From the sequence record MF402939: DNA of 64,000 bases, one strand, 5' to 3'. Shown here in pieces: positions 8,096 to 58,510 of the stretch. The DNA comes from Escherichia phage OSYSP. The notes under the pieces are model-generated. The model was not told where the DNA came from and did not search any database. It saw nothing but the letters and a program-made list of their open reading frames with translations. The stretch's first letter is position 1. Each line of letters begins with the position of its first letter. The position numbers and the translations under genes were made by a program.

Positions 8096-8855
8096 ACTGA
8101 ACTGGAACGTAGAAGGTGTAACCGAGTCTCTGAAAGCAAAAGCCACTGCTCTGGGTGTTGCTGTAATCTCTCAAGAACAAGTAGCTGCTATCGCTGCTGA
8201 ACTGGCTGCTGAAACTGGCAAAGACGTTACCGCTCGCTCTGTTGGCTCTAAGCTGCGTAAAGAAGGTTTCGAAGTACAGAAAGCTAACGAAGTACAGAAA
8301 TCTCCGTGGACTCCTGAGCAGGAAGCTGAACTGGTTGATTTCCTGAACGCTCATGCTGGTCAGTATACCTATGCTGAAATCGCTGCTGCTGTAGCTGGTG
8401 GTCAATTTGGTGCTAGGCAGGTACAGGGTAAGATCCTGAGTCTGGAAATGACCGCTTCTGTTAAACCAACTGAAAAAGCAGCTGCTGTTCGTTCCTTCAC
8501 TCCTGATGAAGAAACTGATTTTGTTAATCAGGTTGTTGCTGGTGCTACTATTGAAGCTATCGCTGCTCACTTCGGTCGTAATATCAAGCAGATCCGTGGT
8601 AAAGCTCTGAGCCTGCTTCGTGAAGGTCGTATCGCTGCTATGCCGGTACAGGAAACTTCAAGTGCTAAAACTCGTGAAGATCTGCTAGAAGGTCTGGATC
8701 TGGTTAACATGACCGTTGCTGAGATCGCTGAGAAAACTGGTAAGTCTGAGCGTGGTGTTAAATCTATGTTGTCTCGTCGTGGTCTGGTTGCTAAGGACTA
8801 TGATGGTGCCGCTAAGCGTGCTAAACTGGATGCAAAAGCTGCGGCTGCTGAATAA
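8088..8855 (+). CDS. Ala-rich protein with internally duplicated helical modules; possible DNA-binding regulator
   Basis: ORF track; repeated AIAA...G(K/R) modules in the translation. Confidence 0.5.
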   Translation: MSKLNWNVEGVTESLKAKATALGVAVISQEQVAAIAAELAAETGKDVTARSVGSKLRKEGFEVQKANEVQKSPWTPEQEAELVDFLNAHAGQYTYAEIAAAVAGGQFGARQVQGKILSLEMTASVKPTEKAAAVRSFTPDEETDFVNQVVAGATIEAIAAHFGRNIKQIRGKALSLLREGRIAAMPVQETSSAKTREDLLEGLDLVNMTVAEIAEKTGKSERGVKSMLSRRGLVAKDYDGAAKRAKLDAKAAAAE

Positions 8856-8871
8856 TCTGGTAAATTAAACC

Positions 8872-8905
8872 TAAGGGGAGGGGGCTATGCTCCTTCCCCT
8901 TTTTG
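8872..8905 (+). terminator. Rho-independent terminator (AAGGGGA ... TCCCCTT + TTTT)
   Basis: Hairpin plus T-run. Confidence 0.7.
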
Positions 8906-8937
8906 CATTTAGAAGGCACGAAAGCGTGCAAAGGAGA

Positions 8938-10410
8938 ATGACCTTGTTTAACGTGCAAGCTGTAGTGTTGAAGATGCTTCTAGCTTCCGAACAGAAGCAA
9001 ATAGCATTGGAAACATTCTCAAAACTGCATAAAGATCATTTTAATGACGCTTTCTCCTCAATTTACCAAGCCGTCCAGAATTATTATAAAAAATATAACA
9101 CAATGCCGTCCATTGACGCACTGATGCTTGAGGCTAATAGGAACGCCCGCCTTTCTCAAGCTCTAGTCGTTTTAGCTAACACTCAAATTCCAGAAGTTAG
9201 CATGGAACAGGCACTTGAAGTCCTAGAGGCCGAGTATACACAGGATTTATTCCTGAAGCTTCTAGAAACAGACGTGCTTCAAGATTTAACAATGCTGGAT
9301 CAGGGAGAAATTCTTAACCGAGTTGCCTCCCTTCACTTAAAATTAGAAGAGAAAGTAACGAATACTGGAAAAGTATTCAACGCAGATAATATGCGTATTT
9401 TCCAGAGAGAAGAAGATACCAAACTGAACTTAATCGCTCTTGGTATTTGTAATGAGTTCGACGCTCAAATTGGTTTAGCTCGCACAGAAACGTTACTGCT
9501 TGGTGGTTGGCGTGGTACTGGTAAATCCATTATCTGTTCAAACATACAGGTTCAGCAATATTTGAATGGGGATATTGCTCCATACTTCTCAATTGAGATG
9601 AAAGAACATGAAGTATTTAGACGTAATCTAGCCATGTTAGCTGGTGTATCAGCACTAGCAATGCGTAATAATACTCTAGAAGGTGCAGCTCTGTTGAGAT
9701 TAGCCAGAACTAGAGCTAGGATGTTTAACGGTGGTGAAGAGCTCTTCGATAACTTCGTTAAACAGTATACAATGGCTAAGATGAGTGATTTCTACGACAT
9801 GGAGAGTAAGCTAATAGAAGGGTATGAGCTACATACTCCTATGATTATTGTTTATGACCCTGAGCTGTCTATTACAACAGTTGACGTAGAATTAAATAAA
9901 TTAGTTGCTAGATATGGGGATAAAGTTACAGTAGCTTTACTGGACTATATTAACCAAACCCGACTTCCAGACTCTAAAACCATTGATATGTATGACTGGA
10001 AAGAACAGATGGTTGTTAGCTCGTCTTTCAAATCTATCTGCCAGAAACATAACGTGGCTGGTGTAGCTCCTTACCAGATTGATCAAGATGGTAGAACACG
10101 TATGTCAAAAGGGATTCTTGATTCCGCAGACATGGCTGCTAATCTTAATGCTGCAAAAGCTGATAATGGTCAAGGTGCTATTATGTTTGACTTCGTTAAG
10201 ACTCGTTCTTCTGATAGCGTGAAGTTTATGCCTAAAATGAACTGGGAAACCCTGCGGATGGATAACACTACCAACCTAGCAATGGAAGATATATCTCAAA
10301 TGGAAGCTGAGTTCGTTATCCCTATTGAGAAGGATAAGCCGGCTCAATCTAAACGTGCTAAGAAAGACAAAGCTGAAAATTCAACAGGTGAACAGGCCAG
10401 CGATATATGA
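8938..10410 (+). CDS. Putative DnaB-like/RecA-fold replicative helicase
   Basis: Walker A GWRGTGKS; AAGGAG Shine-Dalgarno before ATG at 8938; lies directly upstream of primase. Confidence 0.55.
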   Translation: MTLFNVQAVVLKMLLASEQKQIALETFSKLHKDHFNDAFSSIYQAVQNYYKKYNTMPSIDALMLEANRNARLSQALVVLANTQIPEVSMEQALEVLEAEYTQDLFLKLLETDVLQDLTMLDQGEILNRVASLHLKLEEKVTNTGKVFNADNMRIFQREEDTKLNLIALGICNEFDAQIGLARTETLLLGGWRGTGKSIICSNIQVQQYLNGDIAPYFSIEMKEHEVFRRNLAMLAGVSALAMRNNTLEGAALLRLARTRARMFNGGEELFDNFVKQYTMAKMSDFYDMESKLIEGYELHTPMIIVYDPELSITTVDVELNKLVARYGDKVTVALLDYINQTRLPDSKTIDMYDWKEQMVVSSSFKSICQKHNVAGVAPYQIDQDGRTRMSKGILDSADMAANLNAAKADNGQGAIMFDFVKTRSSDSVKFMPKMNWETLRMDNTTNLAMEDISQMEAEFVIPIEKDKPAQSKRAKKDKAENSTGEQASDI

Positions 10411-52223: not shown

Positions 52224-52421
52224 TTAATTTAAAGGCATAAGGCTAGAACTAACACCACAAGCAACGGCGGCAATAAAACAAATCAGACCTAAACGCTTTG
52301 CCAATTTAGACTTACGTTTAAAATAATATGAGTCTAAATCATTTTGAAAATAAGCGAATAATAACGAGGCCGCCATAATAAATAAGCCTAGAATGAGGGA
52401 TTCAGTAGGGTAAAAGATCAT
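52224..52421 (-). CDS. Small two-helix membrane protein (65 aa)
   Basis: ORF track; two hydrophobic segments. Confidence 0.4.
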   Translation of the reverse strand: MIFYPTESLILGLFIMAASLLFAYFQNDLDSYYFKRKSKLAKRLGLICFIAAVACGVSSSLMPLN

Positions 52422-53666: not shown

Positions 53667-54091
53667 ATCTGCGATTCCTTATAATGTATAAGTTTACCGC
53701 CGATAGACTTTAAGATGTACCCAATTTTTAAAGAGCGCGGCGGTAAACTTCCCGCCGTGTAGTTCGTCATTGCCGCCCTACGAGATAAATAATAAGGGAT
53801 TCACAAAAATGGCGCAACCTTATTTTTGTAAAGAAACGTAAAGACAAATGCCACCGGACACCGTGCGGCGACCTGGGCGCGACGCACTAAAATTAAAAGA
53901 AACGGGCGCGCGAATACCACAAAACATAGCAGATAGGCAAGTAATTTTTTCATTTATATTTGCTTTGCCCTACTTGACAAAATCTAAAAAACTCGTGGTA
54001 GCGATAAACGAGGGTAGGCAATGCAATGGCATGGCTAAAAACTTCATCGCGTTCTAGGGCGTTTTAGGCGCATTCTAGCCTTGTTGATAAC

Positions 54092-56367: not shown

Positions 56368-56472
56368 TGTAAAGTTTTGTAAAGGTCGCCTTTTATGGTG
56401 GCCTTTTTTGTTATAATGCTTTTACACCAAAACGGTGGATTGAAAATTTTCCCAAAAATTTGGAGGCTTAAA

Positions 56473-56703
56473 ATGGTTGCATACTCTTCTGCTAGTCATC
56501 TGTTTACCGCGCAAGGCTGGGTATCTAATCGCGTCATCATTCATGAAATGGTGCAGGAGTTCGGCATTGCTAAAACTTACACTACCATTCAGGAACTATA
56601 CAACGCCGATAAAATCGATCAGCAAACGGCTGGCTTTTTGCTGGATACCCTGAAGGCGGAACATTGCACCAAAAAACAAGCCGCTAAAATTGTTTTAATG
56701 TAA
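56473..56703 (+). CDS. Hypothetical protein (about 76 aa, start at MVAYSS)
   Basis: GGAGG Shine-Dalgarno before ATG at 56473. Confidence 0.5.
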   Translation: MVAYSSASHLFTAQGWVSNRVIIHEMVQEFGIAKTYTTIQELYNADKIDQQTAGFLLDTLKAEHCTKKQAAKIVLM

Positions 56704-56749
56704 TTAATAACGGGGCGTTATTTTCGCCCCGCTAACTAGGAGAATGAAA

Positions 56750-56899
56750 ATGGTTATTTTTCGAGCTATTCTGGCAGGTATCTTGGGCGCTATTTTATCG
56801 TTGTTTGCAATAGCTTTCGGTGTTCACGCCGTTATTGTCGGCGCGGGTATCGCCGTTTTTTCTTATCTGCTGGGCTGCATGATTAGTAAAGGAGAATAA
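56750..56899 (+). CDS. Unannotated hydrophobic micro-protein (49 aa, MVIFRAILAGILGAILSLFAIAFGVHAVIVGAGIAVFSYLLGCMISKGE)
   Basis: Hand translation; AGGAG Shine-Dalgarno; stop lies 2 nt before the next ATG. Confidence 0.5.
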   Translation: MVIFRAILAGILGAILSLFAIAFGVHAVIVGAGIAVFSYLLGCMISKGE

Positions 56900-56901
56900 A
56901 A

Positions 56902-57114
56902 ATGATCCGCAACGTTTCTCTTGCTCGTTCGAAAGGCTTTAAGCTGGTGGACGTTAACACGTTCGAGCGTGAAGATTGTAAAATCGAATATGTAGCGCGG
57001 AATAAAAACGCCTTTCGTGTTACCGAGAAAAAATTCGATAAGCGCGGCAACGTGGTCGCTGAAACGGTTAAACATTTTGCCACCTTTTACGCTGCGTTTC
57101 GTGGGGTACTATGA
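56902..57114 (+). CDS. Hypothetical basic protein (70 aa)
   Basis: ORF track. Confidence 0.5.
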   Translation: MIRNVSLARSKGFKLVDVNTFEREDCKIEYVARNKNAFRVTEKKFDKRGNVVAETVKHFATFYAAFRGVL

Positions 57115-57236
57115 AAAGCGTTATCATTATTAGCCTTGCAATGGTTGGCGGTTTTACCGCCACCTTATTTAAAAATGATCCCCTTTTACTGGGGATTTTT
57201 ATGCTTTTATCTGGCTATCTGATTGGGAGGTTATAA
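57111..57236 (+). CDS. Unannotated hydrophobic micro-protein (41 aa, MKSVIIISLAMVGGFTATLFKNDPLLLGIFMLLSGYLIGRL)
   Basis: Hand translation; ATGA start/stop overlap with the upstream gene. Confidence 0.5.
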   Translation: MKSVIIISLAMVGGFTATLFKNDPLLLGIFMLLSGYLIGRL

Positions 57237-57237
57237 A

Positions 57238-57582
57238 ATGGTAATTTATGAAGGCAATCGTTTTGTTGCTAATTGCCGTCCTGCATTGCTAGCAAATTAC
57301 TTAAATCAGCTTTCACCAGCTTATAAGGGCGTTATTAATATTTATGAGGGCAAAGTGCATTATAAGGTTAATGCGGTCGTTGCCCGTGAACTAGCGTTTC
57401 AATTTTTGACCTTTGCATCTTGTGACGTTCAGGTTATGGGTGAGGCGTTAATTGCAGAAAATGAAGATGATTTTATTAACATTTTTCGCAAGATATGCAC
57501 CGAGCGCCTGATCATGAAAGGCGCTTATATTCAATCCACTGCGGATAGTATTGAAACAGCGTTTCGAAAGGTGGCGCAATGA
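57238..57582 (+). CDS. Hypothetical protein (about 114 aa, start at MVIYEG)
   Basis: GGGAGG Shine-Dalgarno before ATG at 57238. Confidence 0.5.
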   Translation: MVIYEGNRFVANCRPALLANYLNQLSPAYKGVINIYEGKVHYKVNAVVARELAFQFLTFASCDVQVMGEALIAENEDDFINIFRKICTERLIMKGAYIQSTADSIETAFRKVAQ

Positions 57583-57737
57583 AAAAGTTTTTAATAGCTG
57601 GCATGTTTCCGTTGTTGCCTTATGTAATTTGCTGGGCTTTATATGCTCATGGTGCTAGTGTTCCCGGTGTGGCTTCATTTGGTGTATCGGCGGGCTTTCT
57701 AGCTGGACTATTGGCAAGCGTATATTTACGCAAATAA
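57579..57737 (+). CDS. Unannotated hydrophobic micro-protein (52 aa, MKKFLIAGMFPLLPYVICWALYAHGASVPGVASFGVSAGFLAGLLASVYLRK)
   Basis: Hand translation; ATGA overlap with the upstream gene. Confidence 0.5.
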   Translation: MKKFLIAGMFPLLPYVICWALYAHGASVPGVASFGVSAGFLAGLLASVYLRK

Positions 57738-57756
57738 TTAATAACGGAGCGTTATT

Positions 57757-57951
57757 ATGAGCAATAAAATTGTTGTAACCAAAATCAGTACAATGGTTGA
57801 TGTTTTTTACGTGCCCGATACGCCGGAGAATCGGCGAGCGGTCGAGCGTGGCGAGTATGATAAAGTGATTTATGATCACGATGGTTACTATCAACATTTG
57901 GTGGATTCCTACGGGGAGGAGGAAAAAATCACGCATCGACTACCAGACTAA
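57757..57951 (+). CDS. Small acidic protein (64 aa)
   Basis: ORF track. Confidence 0.5.
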   Translation: MSNKIVVTKISTMVDVFYVPDTPENRRAVERGEYDKVIYDHDGYYQHLVDSYGEEEKITHRLPD

Positions 57952-57992
57952 TAATCACGGGGCGCAACTACCAGGGAGTGCCCCCAATTCTC

Positions 57993-58087
57993 AAATGAGA
58001 ATCATTCTCATTTGACTGCGCCCGCGATGGTTAGCCTGCTAATGATTAGGGTGTTACGTGTCGCCTTGTGTGATCGTTAGCAGGCTA
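57993..58087. repeat. Palindromic elements: AAATGAGAATCATTCTCATTT and a 12-bp inverted pair TTAGCCTGCTAA / TTAGCAGGCTAA
   Basis: Read from the sequence; related motifs occur at 48812-48853. Confidence 0.7.
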
Positions 58088-58208
58088 ACTAATTTTTAAG
58101 CCTCCTCCAATTTTGCCCTTGTTTTAGTACCCCCACCAAAATTAAACGCGTTAGAATGCGATCTAGGACGTTTTAGCGGTATACTAGAATTATTCACTAC
58201 ATAGGAAT

Positions 58209-58250
58209 ACTGTATATTTATACAGTAGGATATCCTGTGGATAAGTCTGT
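58209..58250 (-). repeat. Right arm of the 42-bp inverted repeat (reverse orientation), includes DnaA box TGTGGATAA at 58236; a second box at 58309
   Basis: Hand-computed reverse complement matches 54508-54549. Confidence 0.8.
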
Positions 58251-58334
58251 TAATAACGCCTCAAAATGGCTAGGATTCTGTCAAATCAAATCGTGCTGTT
58301 AATAAGTCTGTGGATAACTTAAATAACAGTGTTT

Positions 58335-58510
58335 CTCACTTCCATTCTTAAATGAGAATCATTATCATTCGCAGTCCACTGTCTAACCGATAATCATTTC
58401 CTTTCTTAAATGAGAATCATTTCACTTTTTGAATAGTTCTCATTTCCTTTCTTAAATGAGAATAATTATCATTCGCATTCCACTTCTTAAATGATAATGA
58501 TTCTCATTCA
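58335..58510. repeat. Cluster of at least 4 copies of TTCTTAAATGAGAAT(C/A)ATT in direct and inverted orientation
   Basis: Read from the sequence. Confidence 0.75.

Follow-up and report, generated by a model that had tools for sequence, protein, structure and literature searches.

What do very short, strongly hydrophobic open reading frames (ORFs) contribute to the DNA that a T5-like phage injects first, and do they work in pairs with the soluble proteins encoded between them? The question is raised by positions 56473-57951 of a stretch of the Escherichia phage OSYSP genome (sequence record MF402939; the whole stretch, 64,000 nucleotides long, is called the window below). Here seven ORFs of the plus strand are tightly packed, four encoding soluble proteins (A76, B70, C114 and D64) and three encoding very hydrophobic ones (m1, m2 and m3). 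Homology and gene order identify this region as the right-arm pre-early operon of a T5-like, OSYSP-type Tequintavirus. The genes follow the order T5.012-T5.017 of the left terminal repeat of T5, which is its first-step-transfer (FST) DNA, and the injection stop signal comes directly after them, so that the initial annotation of the stretch was right to place the locus in an injection-proximal block. The three micro-ORFs are real, constrained and translationally coupled genes. They are already catalogued accessory genes, independent of their neighbours, and do not constitute a new paired system.

Evidence that the micro-ORFs are genes

The micro-ORFs lie at 56750..56899 (m1, 49 amino acids), 57111..57236 (m2, 41 amino acids) and 57579..57737 (m3, 52 amino acids), exactly as first described. 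Their strong hydrophobicity is equally clear, with grand average of hydropathy (GRAVY) values of 1.84, 1.34 and 1.11, respectively, whereas the four soluble ORFs of the operon range from -0.79 to 0.13. The alternation of the two kinds of ORF and their translational coupling, both proposed earlier, are also seen. Two nucleotides separate the m1 stop codon from the B70 start, the start of m2 overlaps the B70 stop as ATGA, a single nucleotide lies between the m2 stop and the ATG of C114 at 57238, and the start of m3 again overlaps the C114 stop as ATGA. A Shine-Dalgarno (SD)-like motif precedes the start of every one of the seven ORFs. In m1, AGGAG stands 7 nucleotides before the ATG at 56750, a spacing that makes this codon a likelier start than 56744.

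Chance alone does produce some small hydrophobic ORFs in the window. Among its 107 six-frame ATG ORFs of 35-65 amino acids, only eight have a GRAVY of at least 1.1; three of these eight share this 1 kb and one strand, where they fit exactly between the soluble genes. The chance of such clustering is estimated at about 2e-4.

Orthologs from 39 related loci were taken for an analysis of selection. Conservation of the reading frames in related phages had been named beforehand as one of the tests that could overturn the micro-ORFs, and what was found is that all three frames are open in all alleles, with polymorphism concentrated at third codon positions. The pooled ratio of non-synonymous to synonymous polymorphism (pN/pS) is low, being 0.12 for m1, 0.23-0.31 for m2 and 0.08 for m3, and the flanking soluble genes have similar values (0.09-0.17). 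When the same alignments are read in the other two sense frames, the ratio is 0.54-3.8. Further low values occur only in the antisense frame that shares wobble positions, and these are still above the sense-frame values.

All three proteins also have full-length matches in PHROGs, each to a family labelled as of unknown function: m1 matches phrog_5607 (E 7.7e-31, residues 1-49 of 49), m2 matches phrog_19184 (E 6e-25, residues 1-41) and m3 matches phrog_35622 (E 3.2e-39, residues 1-52 of 52). Two of them carry pVOG numbers in a deposited annotation (pVOG3925 for m1 and pVOG6337 for m2), and phrog_5607 is the family of T5.013. At the level of family catalogues, the view that they belong to no described family must therefore be given up. 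Their description as unannotated is accurate for an ORF track limited to at least 60 amino acids and inaccurate for the databases, where OSYSP has entries for m1 and m3 as hypothetical proteins (the identical YP_009791039 and ASM62979, respectively) and orthologs of m2 are annotated in JLBYU40, Bf23, IrisVonRoten, HdH2, Gostya9 and other phages. Six of the seven proteins are OSYSP gp115-120, residue for residue; the seventh, m2, has no OSYSP annotation, and its exact sequence has no NCBI accession and is present only in Logan/ENA contigs.

Expression data exist for a related phage. In RNA-seq of an infection by Tequintavirus Bas33 arrested after FST, the orthologous operon was strongly expressed, and micro-ORFs of 189 and 162 nucleotides had expression values of about 540-590 (PMC13250531); the Bas33 genes were paired with their orthologs here by length and order only.

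Predicted structure of the micro-proteins

The initial annotation described the micro-proteins as single-helix peptides. Each is instead predicted to be a helix-turn-helix hairpin, in which a short polar turn connects two hydrophobic helices, because of the hydropathy profiles, the AlphaFold2 models of m2 and m3, the position of a loop indel in m1 and the invariant turn of m2. We infer that all three insert into the membrane.

The predicted two-helix protein m1 is a short-loop allele of T5.013 (gp013), which is 67% identical to it and has the same place in the right arm of the FST DNA, flanked by the orthologs of T5.012 and T5.014. Two hydrophobic blocks, with a peak 19-residue hydropathy of 2.54, predict two transmembrane (TM) segments. 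The family occurs in two forms, of 49 amino acids (OSYSP) and 59-60 amino acids (T5), which are set apart by an 11-residue insert, IQDSYCGLVNTKPM, and this indel falls exactly in the loop between both hydrophobic segments. The second helix is near-invariant (GAGIAxFSYLLGCM), and small-xxx-small motifs are abundant.

The second micro-protein, m2, is encoded between the T5.014 and T5.015 orthologs by an accessory cassette that T5 lacks. Its AlphaFold2 model (pLDDT, the predicted local distance difference test score, of 90.5) has helices at residues 2-19 and 24-40. The turn contains an invariant K-x-D within a near-invariant KNDP, and the second helix is almost invariant (LGIFMLLSGYLIGR), while the first accepts I/V/L/A swaps. 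That the second helices of both m1 and m2 are nearly invariant suggests specific helix packing rather than generic hydrophobicity. A Foldseek search with the m2 model gave no match in the PDB, and its viral matches were non-significant (E > 4).

The third, m3, is a rare cassette between the T5.015 and T5.017 orthologs. T5 is without m3, and in T5 this slot is filled by T5.016. The gene was found in 41 phage records, every one at least 94% identical, and in just 3 clusters among 5.8 billion proteins. The 90%-identity cluster of m3 (P0042) lists a 763-amino-acid Thermoanaerobaculia 'carboxypeptidase-like regulatory domain' protein; with a BLASTP E of 1.7 to m3 it has no similarity to it, and was rejected as a clustering artefact. 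The model of m3 is of lower confidence (pLDDT 67.9), with helices at residues 3-24, kinked at Pro11, and 28-51, and the second helix carries a glycine-zipper-like G35xxxG39xxxG43xxxS47. Synonymous diversity in the eight m3-bearing haplotypes is 0.167 for m3 versus 0.24-0.26 for its flanks, which is suggestive of a recent horizontal spread of m3, too weakly for this to be claimed.

Searches beyond these families returned little. In Pfam and NCBIfam, none of the seven proteins had a match above noise; weak matches to CcmD (m3) and SoFic-C (A76) fell far under the cut-offs and were disregarded. A search of 5.8 billion proteins with m1, m2 and m3 retrieved T5-like phage sequences only, and an exhaustive profile search of 1.84 billion representatives with the m1 alignment found only its own cluster and three low-complexity matches.

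Slots, cassettes and the question of pairing

Whether the micro-proteins belong with their soluble neighbours can be judged from the 29 distinct operon haplotypes of related phages that were compared. The soluble backbone A76-B70-C114-D64 is essentially constant among them, and the gaps between its genes act as slots. The first slot, before B70, holds m1 in 26 haplotypes, is empty in two and contains an unrelated 31-amino-acid hydrophobic ORF, F15 (L037:2450-2545), in a single one. In the second slot, between B70 and C114, m2 stands alone in 12 haplotypes and is accompanied by an unrelated 40-amino-acid hydrophobic ORF, F4 (L012:2882-3004), in three; F4 is alone in two, and a third unrelated hydrophobic ORF, the 35-amino-acid F9 (L034:2894-3001; two alleles only), occupies two more. 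The remaining ten have an empty second slot, where the B70 stop lies 1 nucleotide ahead of the C114 start. One phage has the order F4-m2 rather than m2-F4. The third slot, between C114 and D64, holds m3 in eight of the 23 haplotypes with a detectable D64. When it is empty, C114 and D64 overlap by ATGA. Its other small occupants are the hydrophobic 53-amino-acid two-helix F8 (L026:3347-3508; two alleles only), the 45-amino-acid F10 with a single, C-terminal hydrophobic TM helix (L035:3342-3479) and the 31-amino-acid soluble F3, and its larger ones are T5.016 and various soluble ORFs of 66-87 amino acids; at times two or three cassettes stand in series.

In total, seven mutually unrelated hydrophobic families of 31-53 amino acids (m1, m2, m3, F4, F8, F9 and F15), together with F10, were found in the 29 haplotypes. 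PHROGs has no match for five of these eight slot families (F4, F8, F9, F10 and F15). Purifying selection is seen, too, in those alternative families that have several alleles, with pN/pS of 0.29 for F4, 0.30 for F10 and 0.27 for F3. Of all the results, this slot-and-cassette pattern, in which so many unrelated hydrophobic micro-ORFs take part, is the most interesting. Morons and the hyperplastic regions of T4 are likewise places where a conserved backbone is broken by small variable genes exchanged among relatives. The operon differs from them in that its variable genes occupy fixed, coupled slots and are mostly hydrophobic micro-ORFs.

The two kinds of gene assort independently. B70 and C114 are present in 29/29 haplotypes, m2 is missing from 14/29, all four combinations of presence and absence of m2 and m3 are seen, and every combination of two m1 alleles with two A76 alleles occurs. 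In the phage collection searched, C114 was found in 436 records, m1 in 366 (by DNA search), m2 in 158 (~36%) and m3 in 41 (~9%). Obligate co-occurrence of the kind expected of a toxin-antitoxin or other two-gene module was not found among the haplotypes. The soluble genes are independent of the adjacent peptides, and no peptide keeps to one neighbour. The earlier suggestion of paired modules or toxin-modulator pairs is thus not supported: the constant backbone, the independent assortment, the unrelated occupants and the order swaps all disfavour obligate pairing. Similarly, T5.015 does not rely on m2 or m3, because T5 is without both and yet its nickase functions. No copy of m1, m2 or m3 outside this operon was found in the protein-database and profile searches, and an IMG/VR scan with the B70 alignment gave no contigs beyond those of the first scan.

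A micro-ORF in T5 itself may be added here. At 8641-8736 of T5 (L004, NC_005859) there is a 31-amino-acid soluble micro-ORF, MKLYIFVGNVEAANDSAGGDNVRHYWQKYIY (phrog_22819), which overlaps the T5.015 stop by ATGA and also overlaps the annotated T5.016 (8681-8938). It is kept in many relatives, often without the rest of T5.016, and has a pN/pS of 0.27. T5 may have an unannotated micro-gene at this position; alternatively, T5.016 may have been given a wrong start.

Junction sequences

Each cassette begins on or beside the upstream stop codon, and its end supplies the SD and stop/start junction for the next gene. A direct repeat of 15 nucleotides flanks m1 (AGGAGAATGAAAATG / AGGAGAATAAAAATG; pattern AGGAGAATrAAAATG, repeat family D15). 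The flanks of m2 are GGGGTACTATGAAAA and GGAGGTTATAAAAT, and the corresponding junction in cassette-free phages, GGGGTGTTATAAAATG, looks like a recombinant of the two. Similar junction sequences encode the C-termini RGVL (B70) and IGRL (m2), each followed by the stop codon.

A longer repeat, of 22 nucleotides, is found on the plus strand after A76 (56701..56722, TAATTAATAACGGGGCGTTATT; repeat families D1 and D3) and between m3 and D64 (57735..57756, TAATTAATAACGGAGCGTTATT), with a partial third copy after D64 (57952-57964; family D1). Its consensus, TAATTAATAACGGrGCGTTATT, contains a 7-bp palindrome. The 18-nucleotide core has two exact matches in the window and occurs nowhere else, where 0.09 matches would be expected even with up to 3 mismatches allowed, and the 22-nucleotide motif is also present after T5.016 in T5. 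The first copy overlaps a G+C hairpin at 56711-56731 (-14.8 kcal/mol, z -2.3), and another G+C-rich hairpin lies at the end of the operon on the plus strand (57959..57984, -15.6 kcal/mol, z -2.6). The repeat may form an RNA hairpin, mark a site of processing or serve as a junction for recombination.

Possible role of the micro-proteins

What, then, would autonomous micro-proteins of this kind do? With moderate confidence, we propose that m1, m2 and m3 are accessory hairpin proteins of the inner membrane, each autonomous, that serve early host takeover or exclusion. A constant soluble backbone (T5.012-like, T5.014-like, the T5.015 nickase and T5.017-like) would offer three inter-gene slots, all of them filled in OSYSP, and each accessory gene, of 41-52 amino acids, would be translated by coupling to the gene upstream. 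Each product would form a helix-turn-helix hairpin in the inner membrane and act alone, not with the flanking soluble proteins, through specific helix-helix contacts with itself, as oligomers, or with an inner-membrane component of the host or of a rival phage. The likely time of action would be the few minutes of the FST pause. The likeliest pay-off would be a dispensable, competitive one, such as keeping out superinfecting DNA, neutralising a membrane-bound defence or conditioning the membrane for takeover. Cassettes may be gained, lost and shuffled through recombination at the short repeated SD and stop/start junctions, with coupling preserved. A bolder form of this reading, possible and put forward only tentatively, is that unrelated hydrophobic micro-genes are inserted, deleted and reordered in the fixed coupled slots by recombination at the junction repeats and the 22-nucleotide palindrome, as a rapidly diversifying inner-membrane arsenal.

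The only micro-protein family with a functional record is that of T5 gp013. It has two predicted TM domains and is one of seven toxic pre-early genes, and cells over-expressing it become shrunken, DNA-free and lysed-looking (Annor et al. 2026 bioRxiv). Like m1, gp013 has two hydrophobic helices and a C-terminal GCM-x-KGE tail; unlike m1, it has the 11-residue loop insert, and it is for this T5 form of 59-60 amino acids that the phenotype was described. Since a T5 mutant without hegG through 017 is viable, with small plaques, gp013 is dispensable. The earlier idea of membrane-acting takeover or exclusion peptides accordingly remains plausible through the toxic, lysis-like gp013, while the partner proteins that were proposed along with it are not supported.

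Several systems offer partial parallels. T4 Imm and HK97 gp15 are small helical inner-membrane proteins of phages that, like the micro-proteins, are dispensable in the laboratory. Both mediate superinfection exclusion and bind the tape-measure protein of the incoming phage, by which T4 Imm blocks DNA translocation (bioRxiv 10.64898/2026.03.06.709160). They are the favoured functional analogy for at least some cassettes, as an analogy only: no homology of the micro-proteins to Imm or HK97 gp15 was found in Pfam, NCBIfam or a structure search with the m2 model, and T4 Imm, at 83 amino acids, has more helices. The known exclusion protein of T5 is the lipoprotein Llp, which blocks FhuA; none of the pre-early genes of T5 is known to confer exclusion. 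The type I toxins TisB and Hok, as well as the small membrane regulators AcrZ, MgrB and SgrT, are hydrophobic peptides of about 30-50 amino acids that depolarise the membrane or modulate a larger membrane protein. These are mostly single-helix peptides, whereas the micro-proteins are predicted hairpins; Pfam, NCBIfam and the m1 profile search showed no homology to them, and neither an antisense RNA nor an antitoxin partner is evident here. The setting is not that of holins either, which go with endolysin or spanin genes and late expression: the micro-ORFs lie in a pre-early FST operon beside a nickase and small proteins, and the holin and endolysin genes of a relative lie elsewhere. Among early phage proteins that hijack envelope functions of the host, Gp11 of Staphylococcus phage PhiNM1 is another small membrane protein, which inhibits growth and binds host membrane-associated machinery (PMC11237401). 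It is unrelated in sequence and has another host and another target, and no cell-division or peptidoglycan phenotype is reported for gp013. A micro-protein as the classical 'A3' trigger of ColIb abortive infection was considered and dropped, the trigger now being assigned to A2 (PMC10644984).

The main rival to autonomous proteins with specific contacts is non-specific membrane permeabilisation. The micro-proteins would then form oligomeric pores or depolarise the inner membrane as type I toxins or holins do, an alternative that we regard as rather doubtful. On this reading the phage would profit through shutdown of host metabolism or exit of degraded host nucleosides in the pre-early phase. 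The appearance of cells over-expressing gp013 fits this explanation, as does the presence of several unrelated hydrophobic families in the same slots, as if any membrane-active peptide would serve. The glycine-zipper-like motif of m3 and the small-xxx-small motifs of m1 fit as well, such motifs favouring helix oligomerisation. However, purifying selection as strong as that on the adjoining enzymes, together with the near-invariant second helices, points to specific contacts; T5 infection brings no early lysis, and pre-early expression is off within minutes; over-expressed hydrophobic peptides often show non-specific toxicity. The failure of T5.013 to prove toxic in Mahata et al. 2021, PNAS (PMC8201957) speaks against general permeabilisers, and it also counts against the autonomous role proposed here. 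Other observations do so too. The sole functional datum, the toxicity of gp013, is an over-expression result (Annor et al. 2026 bioRxiv), and neither Pfam and NCBIfam nor the structure and exhaustive profile searches returned a homolog with a known function, so that the class of target is proposed by analogy. Because the micro-ORFs occur solely in this operon, they may need some backbone product. The junction repeats may largely be the SD and start signals of any coupled pair, and so reflect constraint rather than recombination. Translation and membrane location of m2 and m3 are predictions in every phage, and the Bas33 ortholog of m2, bas33_0173 (126 nucleotides), has an RNA-seq value of 1.6 versus about 590 for the flanking genes (PMC13250531). 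This low value is probably an artefact of read assignment, the gene being shorter than a read and overlapping its neighbours; if true, it would mean that the transcript is processed or that the gene is not expressed.

The other explanations carry less weight. A functional pair of a hydrophobic peptide and the adjacent soluble protein, as anchor and effector or as toxin and modulator, would account for the strict alternation and coupling in the window and for the confinement of the micro-ORFs to this operon, and C114, as a known toxic nickase, could in principle need modulation. Such pairs are nonetheless improbable, as B70 abuts C114 directly in 10/29 haplotypes and C114 overlaps D64 directly in others, the same soluble gene may adjoin different unrelated peptides whose order can invert, m2 and m3 assort freely, as do the alleles of m1 and A76, and T5.015 works alone with host Ung in a phage that has neither m2 nor m3. 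The micro-ORFs could also be translated spacers, with an incidental peptide, that tune a downstream gene such as the toxic nickase via coupling. It is true that every cassette gives an SD and stop/start to the next gene, and that insertion of m2 changes the C114 SD from GTGGGGTG to TTGGGAGG. We nevertheless judge this very improbable, given that it is the amino-acid sequence that is under selection (pN/pS of 0.08-0.23, with the coding frame lowest), that the hydrophobic two-helix architecture returns in unrelated slot occupants and that direct coupling of backbone genes is kept in cassette-free phages. Finally, it is scarcely credible that these are chance hydrophobic ORFs of an A+T-rich phage genome. 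The five other six-frame ORFs of the window with the same length and hydropathy (35-65 amino acids, GRAVY >= 1.1) mostly overlap real genes and do look spurious, but frame-specific purifying selection, intact alleles, SD sites, an exact fit into the backbone gaps and PHROG families built from many phages set the micro-ORFs apart from chance.

Soluble genes and the nickase label

The four soluble genes, all on the plus strand, are orthologs of T5 genes. A76 (56473..56703, 76 amino acids) is 86% identical to T5.012 and matches phrog_5145 (E 5.6e-50), with a pN/pS of 0.16. The lysine-rich B70 (56902..57114, 70 amino acids; phrog_4227) is 99% identical to T5.014, and C114 (57238..57582, 114 amino acids; phrog_4379, E 1.4e-63) is 91% identical to T5.015. 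The acidic D64 (57757..57951, 64 amino acids), the T5.017 ortholog, is the last gene ahead of the injection stop signal region; it matches phrog_6973 (E 2.6e-42), is 89% identical to its ortholog and has a pN/pS of 0.17. For C114, an ORF of 119 amino acids starting with TTG at 57223 was rejected in favour of the ATG at 57238, which gives 114 amino acids and is the start used by all orthologs.

T5.015 is an Ung-dependent nickase of apurinic/apyrimidinic (AP) sites and is toxic by itself via host Ung (Mahata et al. 2021, PMC8201957). By orthology, C114 is assigned the same activity, and its UniRef name is 'DNA-(apurinic or apyrimidinic site) endonuclease'. The databases conflict on this point. 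RefSeq and PHROGs (phrog_4227) label the 70-amino-acid T5.014 family as 'endonuclease nicking abasic sites generated by host uracil glycosylase Ung', whereas UniProt and the gene numbering of Mahata et al. 2021 and Annor et al. 2026, which is that of NC_005859, make the nickase the 114-amino-acid T5.015. The label on the B70/T5.014 family is probably in error, and the mix-up was probably caused by another T5 GenBank record in which the 70-amino-acid protein is named 'ORF015'. It has been propagated into many phage records. The record of NBSal005 (L002, 2004-2217) splits the B70 ortholog into two overlapping pieces of 105 and 153 nucleotides, which indicates a frameshift or sequencing error in it; this is the sole disrupted backbone gene among the compared loci.

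Candidate transcription signals and the wider pre-early region

Upstream of the operon, a scan for intrinsic terminators found a terminator-like hairpin (56381..56406, plus strand) that closes the T5.011-like and phrog_6741 genes. T5 and EASG3 have an annotated terminator at the corresponding place, and the hairpin is kept in all related loci, with differences on both stem arms. It is followed immediately by a perfect extended -10 element, TGTTATAAT (56409..56417, plus strand), a candidate promoter recognised by sequence reading only, which is present in every related locus, one of which reads TGCTATAAT; no -35 match was found for it. Because a terminator is directly followed by an extended -10 in an arrangement conserved in all related loci, T5.012-T5.017 may form a sub-operon with a promoter of its own, which overlaps the terminator that ends the T5.011 unit.

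In a DNA comparison of the region with the phage collection, 409 records match at 80-94% identity, all of them T5-like Demerecviridae. That collection seems to be without OSYSP itself, as the best match is 93.9%. Further upstream, the window contains orthologs of dmp, A1, the T5.005 membrane protein, A2 and T5.011, as well as the extra phrog_6741 gene. Two small membrane proteins are encoded on the minus strand of the left FST arm: a T5.005-type protein with two TM segments (52224-52421, 65 amino acids; phrog_4820, 'membrane protein') and a 50-amino-acid hydrophobic ORF (53801-53953; GRAVY 1.17, phrog_17446), which is under the 60-amino-acid ORF cut-off. With m1, m2 and m3, the predicted total of small membrane proteins in the pre-early DNA of OSYSP is five. 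Directly downstream, at about 57985-58500, is the non-coding injection-stop-signal region, with many AAATGAGAATCATT-like repeats, perfect palindromes (e.g. 57991-58015 and 58030-58089) and DnaA-box-like TGTGGATAA motifs. An Rfam scan of 56.2-58.3 kb returned nothing relevant.

Implications

FST DNA makes up about 8% of a T5-like genome and enters the cell first. In the two-step injection of T5, pre-early proteins are alone with the host for a few minutes, and most of the approximately 17 pre-early genes are without a function. Against this background, small hairpin membrane proteins emerge as a recurrent, selected and interchangeable part of the pre-early operon, several families of which are overlooked by the usual ORF cut-offs and by PHROGs. 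The map of a classic phage group is thereby refined, with the conflict over the nickase annotation flagged, and the present understanding is not overturned. What were hypothetical micro-ORFs become defined candidates for superinfection exclusion, anti-defence or membrane conditioning. If the slots do hold a diversifying arsenal, each peptide would be aimed at a different membrane-bound host defence or at the DNA-entry machinery of a competing phage.

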